64,000 nt of DNA from Candidatus Hydrothermarchaeota archaeon (GTDB lineage: Archaea > Hydrothermarchaeota > Hydrothermarchaeia > Hydrothermarchaeales > BMS3B). The position numbers and the translations under genes were made by a program. Shown one piece after another: positions 1-9,062 of the stretch. The notes under the pieces are model-generated. The model made no database searches. It saw only the letters and a list, made by a program, of their open reading frames with translations, and had not been told where the DNA came from. Numbering within the stretch: the stretch's first letter is position 1; each line of letters opens with the position of its first letter. The DNA lies in contig WANW01000051.1 in assembly GCA_015521615.1 (NCBI GenBank), positions 7,918 to 71,917 on the forward strand, given 5' to 3'.

Positions 1-3000
1 TGCCCTTAAGATTCTCCTTAAACAGCTCTGGCAACAGGGTGTAGAAGCTGCCGTCAAGGTACACATTGCCCAGCCTCTGGATGTAAATCTGAGCTATTTT
101 ATCTGTGCTCTCCCAGGTGTTGCTTGCCTCTGCTGCGGCTGCCACCCTTACGCCGTAGTCGCCGGGAGGCTCTGAGAAAATTCTTGCCATTGCAAGGCGC
201 TCTGCATCGCTGGTATTGTAACCCCTCGCAAGGAGCCAGCCTTTCATGGCAAGGTAGTTCTCCCTGACGTAGTTGGGGTAGCTTGAGTTTGAGGCGTTGG
301 CAGCCAGCATAACCGCCCTATCAAGAAGCTGGAGCTGGTAGGTGAAGGTATCCCTGTAGAGCCCCGAGGTGACTATCACCACATCTATCCTGGGTCTCCC
401 GAGCTGGCTCTCATTTATGAGCTGCACATCGTAGACCCTGCCCCTCTTCCACTTCGGCTCAACGCCCAGCAGATAGAGTATCTGTGCCTCGGCAACGCCT
501 CTGTGACGCATGGTTTCAGTTGCCCAGAGCAGGTAGGCGACCTTTCTCGGGTAGGTGCCGTGCCTCGCTACGTAGTCGCTGAGGAAGGCGTCTGTGAGAG
601 CCTTGCCAACCTTCCAGGCGGCAGTGGTTGGAATTCCGCGTGGGTCAAAGGAATAGAAGTTTCTGCCTGTTGGCAGCGCCTCGGGAGCGCGAAGCGGGTC
701 TCCGCCCACGTTGGGCTTTATGTATATGCCCTCAAGGGCGTCTAAGAGGGAGTCAACCTCCCGCGAGGTGCCATTCACCAGAAGGTCCGCATAGCTCAGA
801 GCAAGCTCAAGCTGCTCAGTTACATTTGCGCTCACATTACCCAAAAAGTCAATCTGTGTTTGATTTACATCAGAGCCTTTAAGCACAGCTTTCAGAAGCT
901 CAAAGCTGCAGCGCTCCTCGCAGGAGCTGTTCGCCTGTTTCGTTGCGCTGGTATAGTCCTTGCCCAGGATATTCATCACAAAAGTCACAAGAGCATCGCC
1001 CTCTGGAGGTATGCCAAAGGTGTGGAGCCCATAGGGTATGTTCTCATACTTTAGCTCGGTGAGGTAGTCTTTGAGCTCACCCAGGAAGGCTTCAAACTCG
1101 GCGTCGCTCATCCCATCCAGGGTGACATTCAGGTCCCTATCAAGGTGCTCAGCCTTTGCAAGCTGGAGTATCTCCTCCCTGTACTGCTGCATCAGCAGCG
1201 TCTTGTTGTTTGCCTTTGCATCCCTGTAGAGGTCTATCCTCTCGTAGATCTCGGAGAGGTTGCCGTAGAGCTCGCCGGGTATGAGCGCCGGTGTGAGATG
1301 GTCAATAATCGTTGCATACCCCCTGCGCTTCGCCTGCGTGCCCTCGCCCACGTTGTCCATCACGTAGATGTACGGGTGGGGTATGTCTGAGAGAAGCACA
1401 TCCGGCCAGGAGGTGTTGTCAAGCCCTACCTGCTTGCCTGGGGTCCACTCCACCGTGGCGTGGGTACCAACATGCACTATTGCACTGGGGTTAAACTCCT
1501 TCTTCAGCCAGAGGTAGAAGGCAATGTACTGATGATTCGGCGGCAGAGAGGTGTTGTGGTAGGTTTTGTCCTCGCTGTTCAGAAAGCCCCTGTAGGGCTC
1601 CGGTGCAAGCAGTATGTTGCCGAAGCGCACGCAGGGTATGACTATGTACCTGCCTGAGGAGTTCTCAAATACCATCTGCTCCCCTGGAGGAGAGCCCCAC
1701 TCCTCTATCACCTGCTGCTGGAGCCTCTCCGGCAGTGTGGAGAACCAGCTCCTGTACTTCTCCTCGCTTATCAGAACAACTGCACCACTCTCTGCAAGTG
1801 CATCCACATCCTCCTGTCTCCACACGCCTATGTTTCTTCCACTCTCCAGCAGAAGGTGCAGAAGGCTGCTGTTATCTGAGTAGCTGGCGTTTATGCTGAC
1901 ATTGAATCCAGAGAAGTTGCCCAGGTCGTAGCCCCTCGCTTTCATAGCATTGAGAATCATTTCAAGGCTTGCGGGGACGTTGAGGTACGATGCTCTTATG
2001 TTGTCTCTGCCGGGGGGATTGTTGTAGTAGATGAAGGCAATCCTCTTCTCGCTGTTGTTGAGCCTCCTGAGCTGTGCCCAGTTCAGTGCCCTGTTCACTA
2101 TCTTCTCAAGCCTGTCCTGAATCACAACCCTTCTGCCATCGCTGCCTCTTGCGGAAAGCACCGTGGGCTCTATTATTCCGTCCAGCTCTGGCATTGCCAC
2201 CTGCCATGCGATCTCGCTGGTGGTTATCCCCTGGGTTGAGTTCAGCCACTCACCCTCACTCTGATAGTACAGGGAGATTGCCTTGATCCAGGGCACAGAG
2301 ATGTTGCTCAGGTCCTCCAGCCCCTGCTCCGGATTGAAGTAGTTGTACCTGAAGGAGTGCTGGGTTATCACCGCATCCACAGTGCTCCTGCTACCGTTCA
2401 GGAAGAACTTCTTTACCGCACCGCTCGACTTTGTGACCGCTATTACATTTGCCCCTCTGCTCTCAATCTCCCCTATAAGGGCTATTACGTCATCGATATT
2501 GCTGCTGGTGTAGTAGGATTTGTAGAAGACTATGCCTATAGTTGGGGCACTTGCGTTGTACCTGCCCGTGCTCCTGTACCACTCCATGTAGCCGCTGAGG
2601 TTTGTGAAGATGCAGCTCGGGCACGGGTGCTCACCCTGCCTGTAGTCGGGATGAAAGGCGCCGTAGGGCACGGGGATTACAGGCAGTGCTGTTTCGTTTG
2701 CGCTGAGAACTTCAACCGCCAGGTATGTGAGCAGCCTTTTTATGTTCTCCTCGCCACCGTTATCTGCGTAGCTCTGGGCAGTCTTGAGCACAGTGCTGTT
2801 CACGGTTATTAAATCGTTGTAGTAGCTCGTGCTCAGGGCGATGAAGGCGGTGGTATTTGTGACATTCTCAATTTTTGCATAGAGGTTTTCTCTGTAGCCC
2901 ACCATGTACATCAGAATGAGGTCATAGCCTTCCAGGGTCTCATTGCCTGTGTCCAGCTCATCAGGGTCCATAAGCCCCAGCTCAAGAAGGGTGTTGTTCC

Positions 3001-3790
3001 ACTCCAGCGAGTCTTTTGCACCCTCCACAAGGCGCCAGAAGGTGCCCTGCTTTGAGGCTATGACCGCATATCTGAGAAGGGGAACCACCTTCAGAGAGAC
3101 GCTCCTGCTAAGCGTTGCCGAGGCTGAGGTGAGGGTTGCGTTTACCAGCGCTACCTCGCCGGTGAAGGCGTTTGTGCGGATGCTCAGATTTAGGCTAAAT
3201 CTCCCCGGGGTGAGGTTGAAGGAGGTGTTCTCAGCGATTAAGCCGCTCAGATTCAGGCTGAGCTCAGAGCTTTCGTTGGTGTAGCCTGTGAGGGTTATGT
3301 TAAAACTCTGGTTTTCATGCACCAGCGCGGGAGAGGTTATCTCCAGCATGGCTGGCTCAACAGCTACGGTGGCGCTCTGGTTCTGAAGCGTGTATACGGT
3401 GCCGTTCAGAGTGTAGTTCAGGTACACCCGGTTTGGAGGGATGCTCTCCCCAAAGGTGAAGTTGCCATCAGCGAAGGTGAAGTTTACCACCGTGGTGATG
3501 TTCACACTGCCGGCGGTGTCATTTAAAGCGCAGGTGAGGTTGCCCGAGGTGAGGTTGCAGGGCAGGGAGGAGTTAATGAATATGAGCCCATCTGACAGAA
3601 CATCCAGGAGCAAAAGATTGCCAGCATTTGCCTCAACCTCATAGGTTATTGTGTAGCCGAGCTCTTCTCCTGCATATGTGCTGTTAGTCCAGGGAGTTTT
3701 GACCAGCACCGCAGCGCCTGCATGAGAAACAGCCAGCAGGATTACTAACAGGGGCGCGACATAAGTTTTAACGCCTCTCACGGGTATCAC
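1..3790 (-). CDS. CobN/Mg-chelatase-H family large chelatase subunit, partial. The 3' end lies beyond the window start. It has a signal peptide and a roughly 330-aa N-terminal extension rich in N-x-S/T sequons.
   Basis: Reverse-strand translation is open from about 3790 to position 1. CobN motifs are present (HVGTHATVEWTPGK, RIDVVIVTSGLYRDTF). The N-terminus reads MRGVKTYVAPLLVILLAVSHAGA from a GTG at 3781 or 3790. No ATG is in frame near the start. Confidence 0.8.
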   Translation of the reverse strand, partial: MIPVRGVKTYVAPLLVILLAVSHAGAAVLVKTPWTNSTYAGEELGYTITYEVEANAGNLLLLDVLSDGLIFINSSLPCNLTSGNLTCALNDTAGSVNITTVVNFTFADGNFTFGESIPPNRVYLNYTLNGTVYTLQNQSATVAVEPAMLEITSPALVHENQSFNITLTGYTNESSELSLNLSGLIAENTSFNLTPGRFSLNLSIRTNAFTGEVALVNATLTSASATLSRSVSLKVVPLLRYAVIASKQGTFWRLVEGAKDSLEWNNTLLELGLMDPDELDTGNETLEGYDLILMYMVGYRENLYAKIENVTNTTAFIALSTSYYNDLITVNSTVLKTAQSYADNGGEENIKRLLTYLAVEVLSANETALPVIPVPYGAFHPDYRQGEHPCPSCIFTNLSGYMEWYRSTGRYNASAPTIGIVFYKSYYTSSNIDDVIALIGEIESRGANVIAVTKSSGAVKKFFLNGSRSTVDAVITQHSFRYNYFNPEQGLEDLSNISVPWIKAISLYYQSEGEWLNSTQGITTSEIAWQVAMPELDGIIEPTVLSARGSDGRRVVIQDRLEKIVNRALNWAQLRRLNNSEKRIAFIYYNNPPGRDNIRASYLNVPASLEMILNAMKARGYDLGNFSGFNVSINASYSDNSSLLHLLLESGRNIGVWRQEDVDALAESGAVVLISEEKYRSWFSTLPERLQQQVIEEWGSPPGEQMVFENSSGRYIVIPCVRFGNILLAPEPYRGFLNSEDKTYHNTSLPPNHQYIAFYLWLKKEFNPSAIVHVGTHATVEWTPGKQVGLDNTSWPDVLLSDIPHPYIYVMDNVGEGTQAKRRGYATIIDHLTPALIPGELYGNLSEIYERIDLYRDAKANNKTLLMQQYREEILQLAKAEHLDRDLNVTLDGMSDAEFEAFLGELKDYLTELKYENIPYGLHTFGIPPEGDALVTFVMNILGKDYTSATKQANSSCEERCSFELLKAVLKGSDVNQTQIDFLGNVSANVTEQLELALSYADLLVNGTSREVDSLLDALEGIYIKPNVGGDPLRAPEALPTGRNFYSFDPRGIPTTAAWKVGKALTDAFLSDYVARHGTYPRKVAYLLWATETMRHRGVAEAQILYLLGVEPKWKRGRVYDVQLINESQLGRPRIDVVIVTSGLYRDTFTYQLQLLDRAVMLAANASNSSYPNYVRENYLAMKGWLLARGYNTSDAERLAMARIFSEPPGDYGVRVAAAAEASNTWESTDKIAQIYIQRLGNVYLDGSFYTLLPELFKENLKG

Positions 3791-3953
3791 CGGGCAAGTG
3801 GTTGGCAACCTGACTTATATATGTTCCTTTTTGGTTAAGAAATGTTAACCAAAGTGGAAACTATGCTAAAAAAGAGTTGGAAAGAATGGCTCAGAAATGG
3901 GCATTCTATATAAATTTGACTCTAATTGAGATAAAAGCAAAAATCAGGAGAAG

Positions 3954-4088
3954 TTATTCTTTTTCAAAAGCCTCTTTGGGCGCATTGCACACCGGGCAGT
4001 GCCAGTCATCTGGAAGCTCGTCGAAGGGTTTTCCCTCTGCCTCCTCATCGTAGATGTAGCCACAGACAGTGCATCTGTACTTTGCCAA
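3954..4088 (-). CDS. rd: Rubredoxin, 44 aa, TTG start. It is not in the ORF track.
   Basis: Translation is [44 protein letters not shown], with CxxCG and CPxC motifs. A GGAGGTGA RBS lies 4 nt upstream and overlaps the FprA stop. A T-rich tract follows. Confidence 0.7.
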
Positions 4089-4099
4089 TTTCTCACCTC

Positions 4100-5305
4100 C
4101 TATTTAAACCTGCTGTGGTACTCCCTAACTTTCTGGGCAAACATCCTGCCAAAGTCGTAGCCCTGCTCATAGTCTTTCTTGTCAGGGCGGTAGTTCACCT
4201 CATAACCCGGCTCGACCACCTCCAGCTTCATGGACTTGAGCACCTGCAGCGCTTCTCTCACGCCTCCGCCACCCCAGCCATAGCTACCAAAAGCGCCGGC
4301 TATGCGGTTCGACGGACGAAGTCCACGGAGATGCTGGAGGAACTCCGCAACAGTGGGGAACATAACATTATTCAATGTCGGGGTACCCACAAGTAAGCCG
4401 CGATACTTCCAGAATTGCTTTATTGCCACACTCATTGGTGTCTCTCTGAGCTTTATGACCTCTGCATACATGCCCTCATCGAGTATGCCATCTAGAACAG
4501 CCCTGCTCATCTTCTCTGTAGAGTGCCACATTGTATCATAGACTATAACAATGCCCTCCTCTGCTTTGCCATTTGCCATGTCCAGGTACATGTTGATAAC
4601 CTTTTCCGGATTCTTTCTCCAGATAACGCCATGATCGGGGGCGATCATGTCTATCTCCAGTCCAAGCTTCTGAAGCTCGGCAATTTTCGCTTTAATCAGC
4701 CTCCCAAAGGGCATCAGAATGTTGGCATAGTAATCTATGACTGCATCTTCCAGGGTCTCCTGGGGCACAAGGTCGTCAAAAAGAACCGCCTGCGCAAAGT
4801 GCTGGCCGAAGGCATCCTGAGAAATTAAAAGCCTGTCCTCCTTTACGTAGGTCATCATGCTATCCGGCCAGTGGAGCATGGGCGTCTCTATGAACATCAG
4901 TGTCTTCTCGCCGAGCTTCAGGGTGTCACCAGTTTTAACAGTCTGAATATCCCAGCCAGTGGTGTCGAAGTGTCTCTCCAGCCCCTGTTTCCCGCGTTCT
5001 GTAGCATAGAGAGTTATATTTTCACACCTTTCCACCACCAGATCCCAGGAGCCTGCATGGTCCAGCTCAATATGATTTATTATTCCCACCTCAATCTTCT
5101 CAGGCTCTGTCAAACAACGGATGCGGTCAAACATAACGTCGGCGAATTCCCGCTTTACCGTGTCCACCAGGGCTATTTTCCTGTCCATGATGAGAAAGTT
5201 GTTGTAGGTTGTGCCCCTGGGCGTGACGTAGCCATGGAAGTCTCTAACATTCCAGTCTATGGCGCCAACCCAGTATATTCCCGGCTTTATCTGCTTCGCC
5301 TTCAT
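4100..5305 (-). CDS. fprA: Flavodiiron protein: type A flavoprotein / rubredoxin:oxygen oxidoreductase (FprA)
   Basis: 401 aa. A metallo-beta-lactamase-like diiron domain (HIELDHAGS) is followed by a C-terminal flavodoxin-like domain. Confidence 0.9.
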
Positions 5306-5314
5306 GCGCCCACC

Positions 5315-5677
5315 TTAGAACCTAACCTCCTTCTTACCCTGCCAGAGGCCGTGGAGGTTGCAGAAGGCAAAGGCTCTGAGAGTGGTAGGCTCATCCAGGG
5401 TTATGGTGAACCTCACCTTCGGATGGCTCACCACAGGAGCAAGGGTCGCCATTCCCAGGAAGGTGTACTGTTCGTCGTAGAGGGCCACCCAGTTTATGTA
5501 ATGGCCCAGCTCATTTGGATGTTTTAAAAGCTCTCCAACCACAATCTTCACGCTGAAAGGCTCTCCCGCCCTGATATCATCCGGAACGTGAATCACAGGG
5601 GTGTGCTTTTTCTCCAGGTCGGTAAGATTTTCAGGGTCTTTGGGTTTGTTCACACCTTTAAGGGAAAATTCCGCCAT
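5315..5677 (-). CDS. sor: Superoxide reductase, 1Fe neelaredoxin type
   Basis: 120 aa. There is no N-terminal CxxC domain. His ligands and a C-terminal CNLHG motif are present. Confidence 0.8.
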   Translation of the reverse strand: MAEFSLKGVNKPKDPENLTDLEKKHTPVIHVPDDIRAGEPFSVKIVVGELLKHPNELGHYINWVALYDEQYTFLGMATLAPVVSHPKVRFTITLDEPTTLRAFAFCNLHGLWQGKKEVRF

Positions 5678-5689
5678 TTCATTGGCCTC

Positions 5690-6232
5690 CTAAAATTCTC
5701 TAAAGGCATTGCCTCCAGCACCACAAACGGGACACCGCTCTGGAGCATCCCCTATAACCGTATGCCCGCACACCGAGCAGATGTTTACCTTCTCTATCTC
5801 CAGGTCCTTCCCTTCCTCTGCCAGCTTTTTCGCCTCAGAGTAGAGCTCCGCGTGGATCTTTTCCGCCTCTATCGCGTAGCGTATACTCCTCTTCGCCTTC
5901 TCCTCCCCCTGAAGCTCTGCCACAGCGTTGTACGCGGGGTACATCTCCTCCACCTCGAAGGTCTCCCCCTCTATGGCAGAGTTCAGATTCTGAGGGCTCT
6001 TGCCAAGCATACCCAGTGCCTTGAAGTGATTTGTGGCATGCACCTGCTCCGCATATGCTATTGCCCTGAAGAGCTTTGCGATGTTGGGAAGCCCATCCCT
6101 CTCTGCCTGCTTTGCGAAGATTAAATACTTCATATGTGCCTGGCTCTCGCCAGCAAAAGCTGCCTTGAGGTTCTCTTCCGTCATCTTCCTCATCTCAACA
6201 CCTCCTGAATTAACTAATTGCTCATCTGCCAA
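5690..6232 (-). CDS. rbr: Rubrerythrin
   Basis: 180 aa. A ferritin-like diiron domain (ExxH repeats) is followed by a C-terminal rubredoxin-like CxxC...CxxC domain. Confidence 0.9.
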   Translation of the reverse strand: MADEQLVNSGGVEMRKMTEENLKAAFAGESQAHMKYLIFAKQAERDGLPNIAKLFRAIAYAEQVHATNHFKALGMLGKSPQNLNSAIEGETFEVEEMYPAYNAVAELQGEEKAKRSIRYAIEAEKIHAELYSEAKKLAEEGKDLEIEKVNICSVCGHTVIGDAPERCPVCGAGGNAFREF

Positions 6233-6275
6233 TTAATAACTTTCTGTTGTTACATCTCGTAACCAGCATTTAGAA

Positions 6276-6446
6276 TCAATTTTCTGCTTCACATTTTGGG
6301 GTGTGCATGTGGTAGTACGGGTTGCCAATCTCTGCGCCACAGCTTTCACAGTTTATTGCAGCTTCGTCGCTGAAAGCTTCATTCTCGGCGCCACAATGTG
6401 TGCAAATTAAAATGTGGAGAGTGGGACCCCTGCCGGGGTCACACAC
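6276..6446 (-). CDS. Small Zn-ribbon / rubredoxin-like protein, 56 aa. It is not in the ORF track.
   Basis: A GTG start follows an AGGAGGT RBS by 7 nt. The start overlaps the stop of the upstream rubrerythrin by 1 nt. Translation is MCDPGRGPTLHILICTHCGAENEAFSDEAAINCESCGAEIGNPYYHMHTPKCEAEN, with two CxxCG knuckles. Confidence 0.45.
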   Translation of the reverse strand: MCDPGRGPTLHILICTHCGAENEAFSDEAAINCESCGAEIGNPYYHMHTPKCEAEN

Positions 6447-6950
6447 CTAGGCTACCTCCTTGAACATCTCTCCCGGAGCACCGCAAACGGGGCACCGCTC
6501 TGGTGCTTCTCCTTCGACAGTGTAGCCACATCCCTGACAAACGAGTAGTGAGCCAAGCTCTGCATCTTTACCTGCCCTCACGGCCTCCATTGCCCTAGTG
6601 TAAAGCTCTGCATGAACCTCCTCTGCTTTAATGGCCCAGGTGAATGTCCTCTCAGCCTCAGTATTGCCCTCTTCTCTGGCCGCGTTTATGAACTCCGGAT
6701 ACATCTCAGTTTTCTCGTAGGTCTCGCCCTCATAGGCAACCTTGAGGTTCTCTGCTGTGGATTTAACGCCGCCCATGACCTTGAGGTGGTTCAGAGCATG
6801 TATGGTCTCACTCTCTGCGGCTGCCCTGAAAAGCCTGGCTACATTTGGGTAGCCATCTTCTTCTGCCTTTTTCGCAAAGGCGAGGTAACGGCGGTTTGCC
6901 TGGCTCTCGCCTGCAAAGGCTTTTGCAAGATTTTCTTCTGAATTTCCCAT
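6447..6950 (-). CDS. rbr: Rubrerythrin, second paralog
   Basis: 167 aa. A diiron four-helix-bundle signature is followed by a C-terminal CQGCG...CPVCG motif. Confidence 0.9.
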   Translation of the reverse strand: MGNSEENLAKAFAGESQANRRYLAFAKKAEEDGYPNVARLFRAAAESETIHALNHLKVMGGVKSTAENLKVAYEGETYEKTEMYPEFINAAREEGNTEAERTFTWAIKAEEVHAELYTRAMEAVRAGKDAELGSLLVCQGCGYTVEGEAPERCPVCGAPGEMFKEVA

Positions 6951-6962
6951 TTTTTCTACCTC

Positions 6963-7145
6963 CTAGCTTTCAACAGGTGCGTAGTAGCACCTCTTCGGGG
7001 AGTGAACCCTCCCTTCCTTCTTGAGTTCACTGATTACCTTTGAAACCTCCTTGCTTTCAACACCCAGCATTTTGGCTATGTCTCCCGGCCTCACCGGCTT
7101 GCCGGCACTTTTCATCGCCTCAAGCACCTTTTCCTTATCCACCAT
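6963..7145 (-). CDS. Mini winged-helix DNA-binding protein, 60 aa
   Basis: The wHTH pattern is GDIAKMLGVESKEVSKVISELKKEGRV. It sits 13 nt upstream of the first rubrerythrin on the same strand. Confidence 0.5.
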   Translation of the reverse strand: MVDKEKVLEAMKSAGKPVRPGDIAKMLGVESKEVSKVISELKKEGRVHSPKRCYYAPVES

Positions 7146-7334
7146 TCATATCACCTCAATTTTTGTTATGTATTTCGTTATTATAAGTACTGATATATAA
7201 AATTTTGGTATGGAATTCGCAATCATAAAGACAATACCGTGCGAATTTCGAACTTATTTATAAGTGTGCAACAACTTGACTGCTTTTTAAATTCAAATTT
7301 CGTTATAATTATTGTAGATATCGTTACAATTAAT

Positions 7335-7781
7335 ATGAATCATGATATGATACTCGACGAAAAAGACCTGAAAATAATAGAGATTCTGCGCAGGGATGCG
7401 AGGACGCCATTCACAGAGATAGCCAGGAGGCTTCACGTAAGCGAGGCGACGGTAAGAAAGCGTGTCGACGCCCTTGAAAAGATGGGGGTTATAAAGGGTT
7501 ACACTATAGTTGTGGACCCTGCTAAAATGGGCTTTTCTACCGTGGCACTTGTAGGTATAAACACAAACCCTGACATGTTTCTCAGTGTGGCTGAGAAGCT
7601 CACCGAATTTGAGGAGGTGCGCTTTGTTGCAACCTCAACGGGTGACCACATGATTATGGCCGAGGTCTGGACACGGAATGGTAAAGAACTCTCATCTCTT
7701 ATATCCGAGAAGATAGGAAAGCTGGAAGGAATAACCCACATAAGACCTGCAATAATCCTTGAAAAGCTCAAAGAGGTTTAG
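7335..7781 (+). CDS. lrp: Lrp/AsnC-family transcription regulator
   Basis: An N-terminal HTH ([34 protein letters not shown]) is followed by an AsnC/RAM domain. The track ORF starts at GTG 7239. An ATG at 7335 or 7347 is the more plausible start. Confidence 0.85.
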
Positions 7782-7865
7782 TCTCCCAACCCTGAACTTC
7801 TTTTTTCTGGCCTCCTTCCAAAAGTTTTAAATCTCTGCTGAGCAAATGCATGCCGAGGGCGTGCT

Positions 7866-9062
7866 ATGAAGGCGCTTGTTGTTGTTTGTGATGGTCTTGC
7901 AGATAGACCTGTGAAGACGCTCGGAAGAAGAACCCCCCTTGAAGCAGCGGATACACCACACCTGGATGAGCTCGCAGAGAGAGGAATAACAGGCATTGTG
8001 GATCCAGTTGCACCGGGGATCAGGGCTGGGAGTGATACCTCCCATCTGGCAATACTTGGCTACGACCCCTGCAAGGTTTACACGGGGCGTGGACCCTTTG
8101 AGGCCGCTGGTATGGGAATTGAGCTGCGTGAGGGTGACATAGCCTGGAGATGCAACTTCGCCACCGTAGATAAGAACCTGGTGGTAGAGGACAGGCGTGC
8201 CGGCAGGATAGAGGACACCTCTGAGCTCATAGACGCCCTGCGCAGCATACGCTTGGAGGGTGTAGAAGTAAAGCTCGCCTCGCTGGCGTACCGCTGCGCC
8301 CTGGTTTTTAGAGGCAAAGGACTCAGCCACATGGTGAGTGACACTGATCCGCATGCTACGGGGGTAAAGGTACACCCCGCACAGCCTCTTGACAACAGCG
8401 CCGAGGCAAGGCGCACCGCCCAGCTTCTTGAGGAGTTCTCGAAGCGCGCGCATGAAATTTTGGAGAAGCATGAGGTCAACACAAGGCGCAGGAAGCACGG
8501 ACTGCCTCCGGCGAACTACCTTCTTGCCAGAGGCGCTGGCGTGGTACCTACGCTGGAGGATTTCCACAGGCGTTACCGCATGAGAGGCGCCTGTATAGCA
8601 ACCACAGCGATTATTAAAGGCATCGCCCGCTTGGCTGGAATGAAGGTAATAGAAGCTGAAAAGGACTACATCGCCAGGGCAAAGCAGGCGCTTCTTGCAC
8701 TTGAAGATGTAGACTTTCTGCTGATGAATATCAAAGAAGCTGACGAAGCCGGGCACGATCACTCACCTGAAAGGAAGGTGGAGGTTATCGAGGCAATTGA
8801 CGCGATGGTGGGTGAGTTTTTAGACTTTGCAGAGGAGAACTATGTGGTGGTGATGTCAGACCATACAACGCCCTGCAGCGTGGGTGACCACACGGGTGAT
8901 GTGGTGCCAGTGCTCATCGCAGGCCCCGAGGTGAGAACCGATGAGGTCACACAGTTCAATGAAAGAGCATGCGCAAAGGGCGGGTTAAATCGCATTAGGG
9001 GCATGGATATAATGCCGATACTGCTCGATCTCCTGAATAAGAGCGAGAAGTTTGGTGCTTAG
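7866..9062 (+). CDS. apgM: Archaeal 2,3-bisphosphoglycerate-independent phosphoglycerate mutase
   Basis: 398 aa. The N-terminus reads MKALVVVCDGLADRP and metalloenzyme motifs are present. Confidence 0.85.
   Translation: MKALVVVCDGLADRPVKTLGRRTPLEAADTPHLDELAERGITGIVDPVAPGIRAGSDTSHLAILGYDPCKVYTGRGPFEAAGMGIELREGDIAWRCNFATVDKNLVVEDRRAGRIEDTSELIDALRSIRLEGVEVKLASLAYRCALVFRGKGLSHMVSDTDPHATGVKVHPAQPLDNSAEARRTAQLLEEFSKRAHEILEKHEVNTRRRKHGLPPANYLLARGAGVVPTLEDFHRRYRMRGACIATTAIIKGIARLAGMKVIEAEKDYIARAKQALLALEDVDFLLMNIKEADEAGHDHSPERKVEVIEAIDAMVGEFLDFAEENYVVVMSDHTTPCSVGDHTGDVVPVLIAGPEVRTDEVTQFNERACAKGGLNRIRGMDIMPILLDLLNKSEKFGA

Follow-up and report, generated by a model that had tools for sequence, protein, structure and literature searches.

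The locus described here raises the question of what three very small genes are doing among the enzymes of an oxygen-defence cluster, and whether two of them are genes at all. It lies on the minus strand at positions 3954-7145 of a 64,000-nucleotide stretch of contig WANW01000051.1 (GenBank assembly GCA_015521615.1, Candidatus Hydrothermarchaeota archaeon); this whole stretch is called the window, and the coordinates given for the cluster and its surroundings refer to it. An earlier note on this DNA, made from the letters alone, had described a minus-strand cluster of seven genes and had assigned each of them to a family, and both the positions and the assignments were confirmed. The seven tightly packed open reading frames (ORFs) are, in the order in which they are read:

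6963-7145, minus strand: wHTH, a 60-aa PscE-like single-domain protein with a winged helix-turn-helix; sub-threshold matches to HTH models, wing motif SPKRC[YF]YAP
6447-6950, minus strand: Rbr1, a rubrerythrin with a diiron domain and, at its C-terminus, a rubredoxin-like domain (PF02915, 5.5e-28; PF21349, 6.8e-10)
6276-6446, minus strand: Znr56, a 56-aa acidic Cys4 zinc ribbon with a GTG start; a conserved ORF that reaches no curated family cutoff
5690-6193, minus strand: Rbr2, a rubrerythrin (PF02915, 5.8e-29; PF21349, 4.5e-09)
5315-5677, minus strand: SOR, a 1Fe superoxide reductase of the neelaredoxin type (PF01880; TIGR00332, 65.1 against a cutoff of 61.9)
4100-5305, minus strand: FprA, a flavodiiron protein (PF19583, ODP/metallo-beta-lactamase-like, and PF00258, flavodoxin; HIELDH motif)
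3954-4088, minus strand: Rd44, a 44-aa short-loop rubredoxin with a TTG start (PF00301, 50.0 bits against a cutoff of 23)

When Rbr1 was searched against one genome per species, its nearest relatives were metagenome-assembled genomes of Hydrothermarchaeota, with 92-93% identity to JdFR-17 and JdFR-16 (Ca. Pyrohabitans) and 80-84% to other members of the group, and the source is thus a Hydrothermarchaeota archaeon near Ca. Pyrohabitans. The enzyme families on which the earlier description of a cluster for the detoxification of oxygen and reactive oxygen species (ROS) was based were all confirmed, and the enzyme set itself is the textbook oxygen defence of anaerobes. SOR is of the 1Fe type, since PF01880 is its sole match, PF06397 (the desulforedoxin-like N-terminal domain) being absent, and since TIGR00332 is above its cutoff. 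FprA carries the HxExDH motif, here HIELDH, together with both domains of the class A flavodiiron proteins; the NorV equivalog models remain below their cutoffs because a C-terminal rubredoxin domain is absent. The start of Rbr2 is the ATG at 6193, which is backed by a Shine-Dalgarno site and by the homologues, whereas a mechanical list of ORFs places it at a TTG, at 6232. Taken as a whole, the cluster is best explained, and in our judgement probably so, as the reductive oxygen and ROS defence of a strictly anaerobic Hydrothermarchaeota archaeon.

Znr56 and Rd44 are genuine genes. The loci used for comparison carry L numbers, L005-L007 being the JdFR loci and L007 in particular that of Ca. Pyrohabitans jungbluthii JdFR-16 (MTMD02000006.1). 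The order of the genes, with the two small ORFs in their places, is kept in L005-L010, L053 and L054, which means that the cysteine pattern, the frame and the synteny, whose conservation in related genomes had been named as the check on these genes, persist in at least eight related loci. The Znr56 ORF is conserved in L005-L010 and L053-L057, and its start stays at a fixed position while the codon varies (GTG in six loci, ATG in L010, L053 and L055); Rd44 likewise starts at one position, with TTG, ATG or GTG. Purifying selection acts on all three small genes. The dN/dS ratio (Nei-Gojobori) is 0.05-0.09 for Znr56, with 0.05-0.075 against the JdFR loci L005-L007 where dN is about 0.09 and dS 1.3-1.8, and 0.02-0.10 for Rd44 where dS is unsaturated; wHTH is held tighter still (0.01-0.1).

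The translation signals are in keeping with such close packing, as a GGAGG-type Shine-Dalgarno sequence is found 4-8 nt upstream of every gene of the cluster. The GTG of Znr56 can be read 7 nt after AGGAGGT, as had been reported, and it directly abuts the stop codon of Rbr1 (GTG at 6446-6444, TAG at 6449-6447), without the 1-nt overlap that had been claimed for this junction. At the other small gene the overlap does hold: GGAGGTGA, which lies 4 nt before the TTG of Rd44, shares its first base with the TAG stop of FprA. The gap between the wHTH stop and the ATG of Rbr1 measures 12 nt instead of 13. As Rbr1 and Znr56 are in frame in most loci, a fusion of the two by stop-codon readthrough was considered and rejected. 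In L009 the Znr ORF is retained though offset by 2 nt relative to Rbr1, which excludes readthrough or passive conservation; moreover the stop varies between TAG and TAA, and L010, L053 and L055 have an ATG of their own.

Public gene calls for this organism pass over both genes. L145 (GCA_027051235.1) holds an identical 3,192-bp cluster, and in L146 and L147, two assemblies from ENA, both small ORFs are present as exact copies; the records of the three list a divergent AsnC gene, wHTH, Rbr1, Rbr2, SOR, FprA and a CobN-like gene, and nothing at Znr56 or Rd44. Znr56 is without a gene on record in L145-L149, Rd44 is uncalled in L145-L147 and in L053, and a TTG-start rubredoxin is uncalled in GCA_054014855.1. 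The statement that the small genes are unannotated is therefore correct for the L145-L147 records and does not extend to the families, whose homologues have been called elsewhere: the exact Rd44 sequence on four short contigs (L001-L004), and homologues of Znr56 as 'hypothetical protein [Ca. Pyrohabitans sp.]' and, in one case, as 'ribosomal protein S27E'. The annotation gap thus comprises two selected genes, one of 56 aa starting with GTG and one of 44 aa starting with TTG, and with one of the two, the rubredoxin, the operon's path for electrons would be complete.

Rd44 is the simpler of the two. Its identification as a rubredoxin stands, PF00301 scoring more than twice its cutoff, and it has the Cys pairs C6/C9 and C31/C34 with Y4, Y11, Y13, F22, W29 and F41 at the positions of the rubredoxin aromatic core. 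Against rubredoxins of the PDB the E-values go down to 8e-17. Residues 1-42 align to 6rxn (46 aa) and 6nw0 (45 aa), at residues 1-43 and 2-44, that is, over nearly the entire length; an 8-residue loop gap is present against the 53-aa rubredoxins and no such gap against 6rxn or 6nw0. It is because of this loop deletion that the NCBIfam equivalog NF045768 gives only 54.2 bits, below its cutoff of 90. Rd44 is a conventional short-loop rubredoxin, like 6rxn, 6nw0 and 6nw1 (45 aa) in the missing loop, and it differs from them in its second knuckle, CPVCNA, where Asn35 (3984-3986) replaces the usual Gly. All Hydrothermarchaeota copies keep this Asn, and an identical exchange of Gly for Asn was seen in the rubredoxin-like domain of Rbr2 in L008 (CPVCNAGK). 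Judging from the known biochemistry of SOR, of rubrerythrin and of flavodiiron proteins that depend on rubredoxin, Rd44 is likely to be the common electron donor of the cluster.

Znr56 belongs to a family that appears to be uncharacterised, and undescribed in the literature searched. Its AlphaFold2 (AF2) model is a four-stranded zinc ribbon, in which the two CxxC knuckles sit on beta-hairpins packed into a small sheet, with a mean predicted local distance difference test score (pLDDT) of 82.9 and block means of 94-97 over residues 11-40. The best neighbours in sequence and fold are eS27, Rpb12/RpoP (E 0.003), LysW, TMEM55B and RBR/IBR domains, and no rubredoxins are among them. The protein is acidic (pI 4.65, net charge about -7); no curated family reaches its cutoff with it, and no homology to known chaperone families was found. 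The name of ribosomal protein S27e, which JGI gives to one homologue, was rejected on account of the low scores (PF01667, 16.4 against 24.5; NF001629, 17.4 against 70) and of the acidic character of the protein. In contrast to the eS27 and Rpb12/RpoP ribbons, Znr56 is acidic and stands in a stress operon, and no likeness to eS27 was found beyond the ribbon core.

The residues C2, D3, P4, G7, P8, C15, C18, E21, E23, F25, D27, E28, C33, C36, N42, P43, H46 and H48 are invariant in Znr56, and the signature of the family is C...CxxCG-E-x-E-x-FSDE...CxxCG with extra conserved Cys and His towards the termini. The close family is small: a set of 5.8 billion proteins yielded 7 clusters at 90%, and a set of 1.84 billion a single representative at 50%. 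An exhaustive scan with hidden Markov models (HMMs) also retrieved small distant relatives (E 5e-9 to 1e-4), which share C-P-G...P-T-L...CPxCG-E-x-E-x-FSDE...V-x-CxxCG and which hhalign aligns to Znr56 with 99% probability (E 6e-18); none of them is in a curated Pfam or NCBIfam family. Domain fusions of the family offered nothing informative, the larger matches being repetitive Cys-rich or membrane proteins. One subfamily (P0131, P0139, P0156, P0168 and P0170) has a C-terminal motif, SC[IV][QED]WC-x4-C-[LIV]-G, and two of its cases (L058 and L144) adjoin FeS_assembly_P and ScdA_N, or a CbiA-type ATPase and HMA, a hint that a further site for a metal or cluster may be present.

The third small protein, wHTH, gave an AF2 model with a pLDDT of 89.6, consisting of three helices and a beta-hairpin wing. 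Its closest structural matches are the DNA-binding domains of repressors, and further ones are Zalpha, BlaI-like, ArsR, MarR and PerR structures; from the model and these matches wHTH is a canonical winged helix. With only 60 aa it is without a metal-binding or dimerisation domain, and it falls below the Pfam thresholds for DtxR, MarR, TrmB and Rrf2 (PF01325, 23.4 against 26; PF12802, 19.7 against 27; PF01978, 17.9 against 25.6). Its family is very large, with at least 6,900 matches of 57-63 aa at 70-95% identity, and is spread over Hydrothermarchaeota, Archaeoglobus, Thermoplasmata, Bilophila, Desulfovibrio (D. piger) and Chlorobaculum, where the member is PscE. The wing motif SPKRC[YF]YAP, with its one Cys, is invariant in 27 diverse members. 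The possibility that wHTH is a Z-DNA binder of the Zalpha type was discarded. The Zalpha motif consists of an Asn and a Tyr in the recognition helix and a Pro-Pro-x-Trp wing; the ZBP1 profile did match with an E-value of about 2e-5, but the Asn and Tyr positions are Ser35 and Ser39 in wHTH and the wing reads SPKRCYY.

The neighbours of the wHTH genes point to oxidative stress. In Archaeoglobus the gene heads an operon with the order wHTH-Prx-ferritin-like-Dfx-Rbr-Rbr. Among 80 metagenome loci, ROS genes (Rbr, SOR/Dfx, Prx, FprA, Rd or ferritin) are on the same strand as wHTH in 20, the nearest less than 200 nt away in 19 of them. Fpg, which repairs oxidised purines, is found near wHTH in 8 of the 80, at distances from immediate adjacency up to about 1.3 kb, and a convergent gene for a 'putative redox-active' C_GCAxxG_C_C protein (PF09719) in 20. 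This last gene lies at the 3' end of wHTH (in L064 at 2600-3070, minus strand), overlapping it by 15 nt in many loci and set off from it by about 20 nt in most of the rest. The Rbr, SOR, Prx, Fpg and C_GCAxxG_C_C neighbours, together with a PerR-box-like site in Bilophila that is described below, connect the family with oxidative-stress loci, a linkage that appears to be undescribed in the literature searched. By analogy, wHTH is most plausibly a 1-Cys redox-responsive factor that would bind DNA or protein.

The earlier note had proposed wHTH as the dedicated regulator of the cluster. The winged-helix fold agrees with a regulator, whereas dedication to this cluster is put in doubt by the very large size of a family that also occurs away from ROS genes, by the replacement of the gene in JdFR-16 and by a rival, the divergent Lrp/AsnC-family gene, which is a second candidate regulator. 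One alternative is that wHTH is a PscE-like protein-binding adaptor which acts as a stress effector, the operon being regulated by Lrp/AsnC or by another factor. The sole solved homologue of wHTH is indeed PscE (7ueb_E), which matches over its full length (residues 1-57, E=3.8e-16) and has the same SPKRCY wing; it was modelled as a 'helix-turn-helix subunit' bound to PscC/FMO in the reaction-centre-FMO supercomplex of Chlorobaculum tepidum and is described, for this phototroph, as an accessory subunit by which PscC/FMO2 is stabilised (PMC9529944). In addition, the archaeal proteins are about 70% identical to those of Bilophila and Desulfovibrio, which would be unusual for a specific regulator. 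The copy in Bilophila (WP_009733384.1) is itself preceded, on six gut contigs (L112, L121, L122, L129, L134 and L135), by a perfect AGGAATTGTTCCT palindrome at -63/-65 that matches the core of the Desulfovibrio PerR box of Rodionov et al. (PMC545781), and so wHTH may there be regulated by peroxide stress instead of being the regulator. A gene of the PerR regulon of D. vulgaris, 206199 (PMC545781), may belong to the same family, and Fpg lies divergently upstream of wHTH in four of the six Bilophila contigs. The adaptor would also agree with the case of L007, where the promoter is kept and wHTH has given way to an ORF like a mini-rubredoxin, and with the conserved divergent AsnC gene. Nevertheless, the fold is that of a canonical DNA-binding winged helix with repressor domains as its closest matches, the protein is basic, and the first position in an operon is typical of autoregulated repressors. 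Moreover, an archaeal single-domain wHTH protein that works as a thiol switch is known in OxsR (PMC9426492), and the assignment of PscE rests on the fitting of cryo-electron microscopy density and on proteomics (PMC9529944). We regard the adaptor as possible and, on this balance, doubtful.

As regards the genomic contexts of Znr56, its translation is coupled to that of Rbr1 in the majority of the Hydrothermarchaeota loci. In L055-L057 a 61-aa homologue of wHTH and a Znr gene are adjacent, 13 nt apart, with a convergent CBS gene next to them and no ROS gene in the available flanks. L081, L116 and L120 are wHTH-led ROS operons of other lineages in which a distant Znr relative comes just after desulfoferrodoxin; the contigs look bacterial (Fpg in all three, a multihaem cytochrome also in L116 and L120), and the order in L120 is wHTH, Rbr, Dfx, Znr-like, flavin-reductase fragment, Rd, FprA and DUF166. 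With the HMM of the family core no Znr-like ORF was detected in 42 Rbr loci lacking wHTH, and no further copy in the window. The charges of the two proteins are complementary, wHTH having about +3.6. Because the wHTH-Znr pair stands alone in one lineage and the two co-occur in ROS operons of unrelated lineages, we tentatively prefer to see Znr56 as a thiol- or metal-based accessory of a stress-response unit with wHTH, as sensor or partner, and not as an electron carrier. These contexts argue against a simple extra rubredoxin and for an accessory role tied to the stress-response unit; they leave a sensor or regulatory partner and a metal-handling factor unseparated. A bolder version, according to which wHTH and the ribbon form a thiol/zinc module for the sensing of oxidative stress in archaea and bacteria, with the ribbon, as the partner sensitive to redox state or metal, controlling the binding of wHTH, seems to us rather unlikely.

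The carrier role was the one suggested earlier, when Znr56 was taken for a free-standing copy of the rubredoxin-like domain of rubrerythrin on the grounds of a matching cysteine spacing. The spacing is in fact CxxC-x14-CxxC (CxxCG-x13-CxxCG) in Znr56 and CxxC-x11-CxxC in both rubrerythrins of the cluster, and a gap of 3 residues is needed when hhalign aligns the two, even if it does so with 91% probability. PF00301 and PF21349 have no match to Znr56 at E<=1, and NF045720 (rubredox_RCKP) reaches only an E-value of 0.026 with no passing stretch. Between the knuckles F25 is the sole aromatic residue, so that a rubredoxin aromatic core is not evident. With zinc ribbons as its neighbours and Rd44 already present in the operon, the rubrerythrin-derived module is not borne out. 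A broader form of the idea, in which Znr56 is a free-standing rubredoxin-like Fe(Cys)4 protein that hands electrons on to rubrerythrin or to another of the operon's enzymes in the manner of Rdl, draws on the two CxxCG knuckles, on the coupling to Rbr1, on the hhalign match and on a layout of regulator, rbr and small Cys4 protein that parallels perR-rbr-rdl (PMC545781). Apart from the spacing and the profile results it has to contend with the fact that each rubrerythrin possesses a rubredoxin-like domain of its own and that the gene of L055-L057 has wHTH beside it and, as far as the flanks are available, no redox enzyme; we judge it unlikely. No more probable is a role as an Fe/Zn chaperone, or as a repair or assembly factor for the iron centres of rubrerythrin, SOR and FprA, in which a labile metal would be held by a site of Cys2, His46 and His48 and by the acidic E-x-E...DE patch. 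The residues in question (C2, H46, H48, E21, E23, D27 and E28) are invariant and lie outside the Cys4 site, the gene is coupled to that of a diiron protein, distant relatives stand between FeS_assembly_P and ScdA_N/DUF1858 or upstream of a CbiA/ParA-type ATPase and HMA, and there is the subfamily with the SC[IV][QED]WC...C motif. The distant contexts are however few and heterogeneous, the His pair is found in the Hydrothermarchaeota subfamily only, known chaperone families show no homology, and the wHTH-Znr pair without metalloenzymes would be left unexplained.

The preferred view of wHTH and Znr56 as partners in one stress-response unit has several observations against it. Znr56 is kept in L007 though the wHTH gene is absent, which means that linkage in cis is not obligatory, and a Znr56 start that abuts the Rbr1 stop, as it does in most of the Hydrothermarchaeota loci, fits a partner of rubrerythrin at least as well as a partner of wHTH. 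The contexts of the distant Znr relatives are heterogeneous (FeS_assembly_P/ScdA_N, CbiA-type ATPase/HMA, or unrelated), and CxxCG knuckles, in a protein for which hhalign does return the rubrerythrin domain, can hold Fe as well as Zn. On the side of wHTH, the remaining metagenome loci have unrelated neighbours, many homologues being without a ROS neighbour, and the sole homologue that has been observed, PscE, was modelled as a subunit of a photosynthetic complex and seen bound to protein and not to DNA. Finally, no operator motif common to the different lineages was seen upstream of the wHTH genes across 77 loci, many copies being internal to operons.

The signals around the cluster bear on whether it is one operon, as had been proposed, and they are given here with the two genes that flank it:

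7172-7250, minus strand: candidate promoter/operator region of the first unit, with the palindrome CGAAATTCG (7250-7242), an element CCAAAATTTTATATAT resembling a B recognition element and TATA box (BRE/TATA; 7208-7193) and ATAATAACGAAAT (7184-7172)
6232-6247, minus strand: candidate internal BRE/TATA element ACAGAAAGTTATTAAT, preceding the ATG of Rbr2 by about 43 nt
3933-3943, minus strand: oligo-T tract TTTTTGCTTTT (T5 and T4 runs), 10 nt past the Rd44 stop, a candidate archaeal terminator
7341-7781, plus strand: Lrp/AsnC-family regulator, divergent from the cluster (PF13404 and PF01037 matches)
1-3781, minus strand: CobN-like ORF that extends beyond the start of the window, with a length of at least 1,260 aa (PF02514, E=1e-280), with an N-terminal segment like a signal peptide

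In front of wHTH, ATAATAACGAAAT lies just downstream of the TATA-like element, which is kept in position in the window, in L005-L010 and in L053. The palindrome, which is CGATATTCG in L010 and L053, and an ACGAAAT box are clearest in the closer relatives, and L055 has TTCGTAcataTACGAA after the TATA. These motifs are inferred candidate elements of the first-unit promoter. Before Rbr2, a related AGAAA[GA][GT]TATTAAT is found at the same distance in the window and in L005-L009, is weaker in L010 and is absent in L053; it probably marks an internal promoter, and the region may therefore be two transcription units. Two co-directional units, wHTH-Rbr1-Znr56 followed by Rbr2-SOR-FprA-Rd44, are probable. 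The T-rich tract reported after Rd44 is present, as runs of five and four T at 3943-3933, and a similar tract is found in L053. A scan for bacterial-type hairpin terminators gave none after Rd44, where only oligo-T tracts occur.

Two differences in gene content were noticed among the relatives. In L007, at about 3058-3165, promoter and leader are the same but are followed, in place of wHTH, by a 35-aa ORF with a TTG start, MAEWKCSECGFTKSSRCKPRKCPECGASGKFVKAE, which is directly upstream of Rbr1 and resembles an RCKP-type rubredoxin-like mini-protein. Between Znr and Rbr2, L006 (about 1775-2180), L008 and L009 have an extra gene of about 133 aa (MALKWNEKFATGIEKIDTQH...), hemerythrin-like by eye only, which is absent from the window, L005, L007, L010 and L053.

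The cluster is flanked by the divergent Lrp/AsnC gene on one side and by the large CobN-like gene on the other. The AsnC gene is called also in L053 and L145-L149, and a second motif of the ATAAYGAAAT type lies near its start. The CobN-like ORF carries a BRE/TATA-like element of its own at about 3826-3811, and its product is apparently secreted or membrane-anchored, which is unusual for a CobN-like protein. No homologue of the cluster's own gene set was found elsewhere in the window, and an Rfam scan of positions 1-9000 gave no RNA family.

Taken together, we suggest the following mechanism. Rd44, as a short-loop Fe(Cys)4 rubredoxin, would carry electrons from a reductase encoded elsewhere, none having been assigned and no search having been aimed at it. 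It would supply the 1Fe-SOR, which reduces superoxide to H2O2, the two rubrerythrins, which reduce H2O2 to water, and FprA, which reduces O2 to water, so that the enzymes of the cluster would dispose of superoxide, peroxide and O2 without releasing O2. With rather less assurance, we propose that the first unit, wHTH-Rbr1-Znr56, could be the part for sensing and early response. Here wHTH might act through its invariant wing Cys, by analogy with the thiol switch of OxsR (PMC9426492), and Znr56 might be its acidic Cys/His-rich partner, both of which we put forward with the same reserve.

The type of operon and the rubredoxin are already known; what appears to be new is the Znr family and the linkage of wHTH to stress genes. 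Should wHTH turn out to be a thiol switch, anaerobes would have in it a candidate for a regulator or effector of oxygen tolerance that is widespread and has so far been missing, and the assignment of PscE would merit a second look.

Among known systems, the clusters of SOR, rubredoxin and rubrerythrin in Pyrococcus furiosus and the fpaA-rlp-rub operon of Methanothermobacter are made up from the same enzyme set (SOR, Rd, Rbr and FprA) with rubredoxin as the common donor. The Methanothermobacter operon is accompanied by MsvR, a redox-sensitive regulator dedicated to it and encoded next to it, which is larger than the wHTH protein described here and has a V4R domain. To our knowledge neither a gene of the Znr56 type nor a 60-aa wHTH has been described in these clusters. 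D. vulgaris with its perR-rbr-rdl operon and Geobacter with its perR-rbr-roo operons (PMC545781) provide another parallel. There too a small regulator gene is followed by a rubrerythrin and then by a small Cys4 protein, with FprA/ROO in the same regulon, in the peroxide and oxygen defence of strict anaerobes. However, PerR is of the Fur family whereas a wHTH of 60 aa is the regulator candidate in the present cluster, which belongs to an archaeon with promoters of the BRE/TATA kind, and Rdl is rubredoxin-like (PMC545781) whereas Znr56 matches no rubredoxin model. PscE resembles wHTH as a member of the same family of 59-60 aa with the wing motif SPKRCY[WY], and differs in being the accessory subunit of a phototroph for which neither a link to ROS genes nor DNA binding is reported (PMC9529944). 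OxsR of Haloferax volcanii, a single-wHTH thiol switch of the TrmB family that was studied under hypochlorite stress (PMC9426492), belongs to a distinct family and has its Cys in the N-terminal helix and not in the wing. Nevertheless it has in common with wHTH an archaeal host, one winged-helix domain and one conserved functional Cys, and OxsR itself controls oxidative-stress genes.

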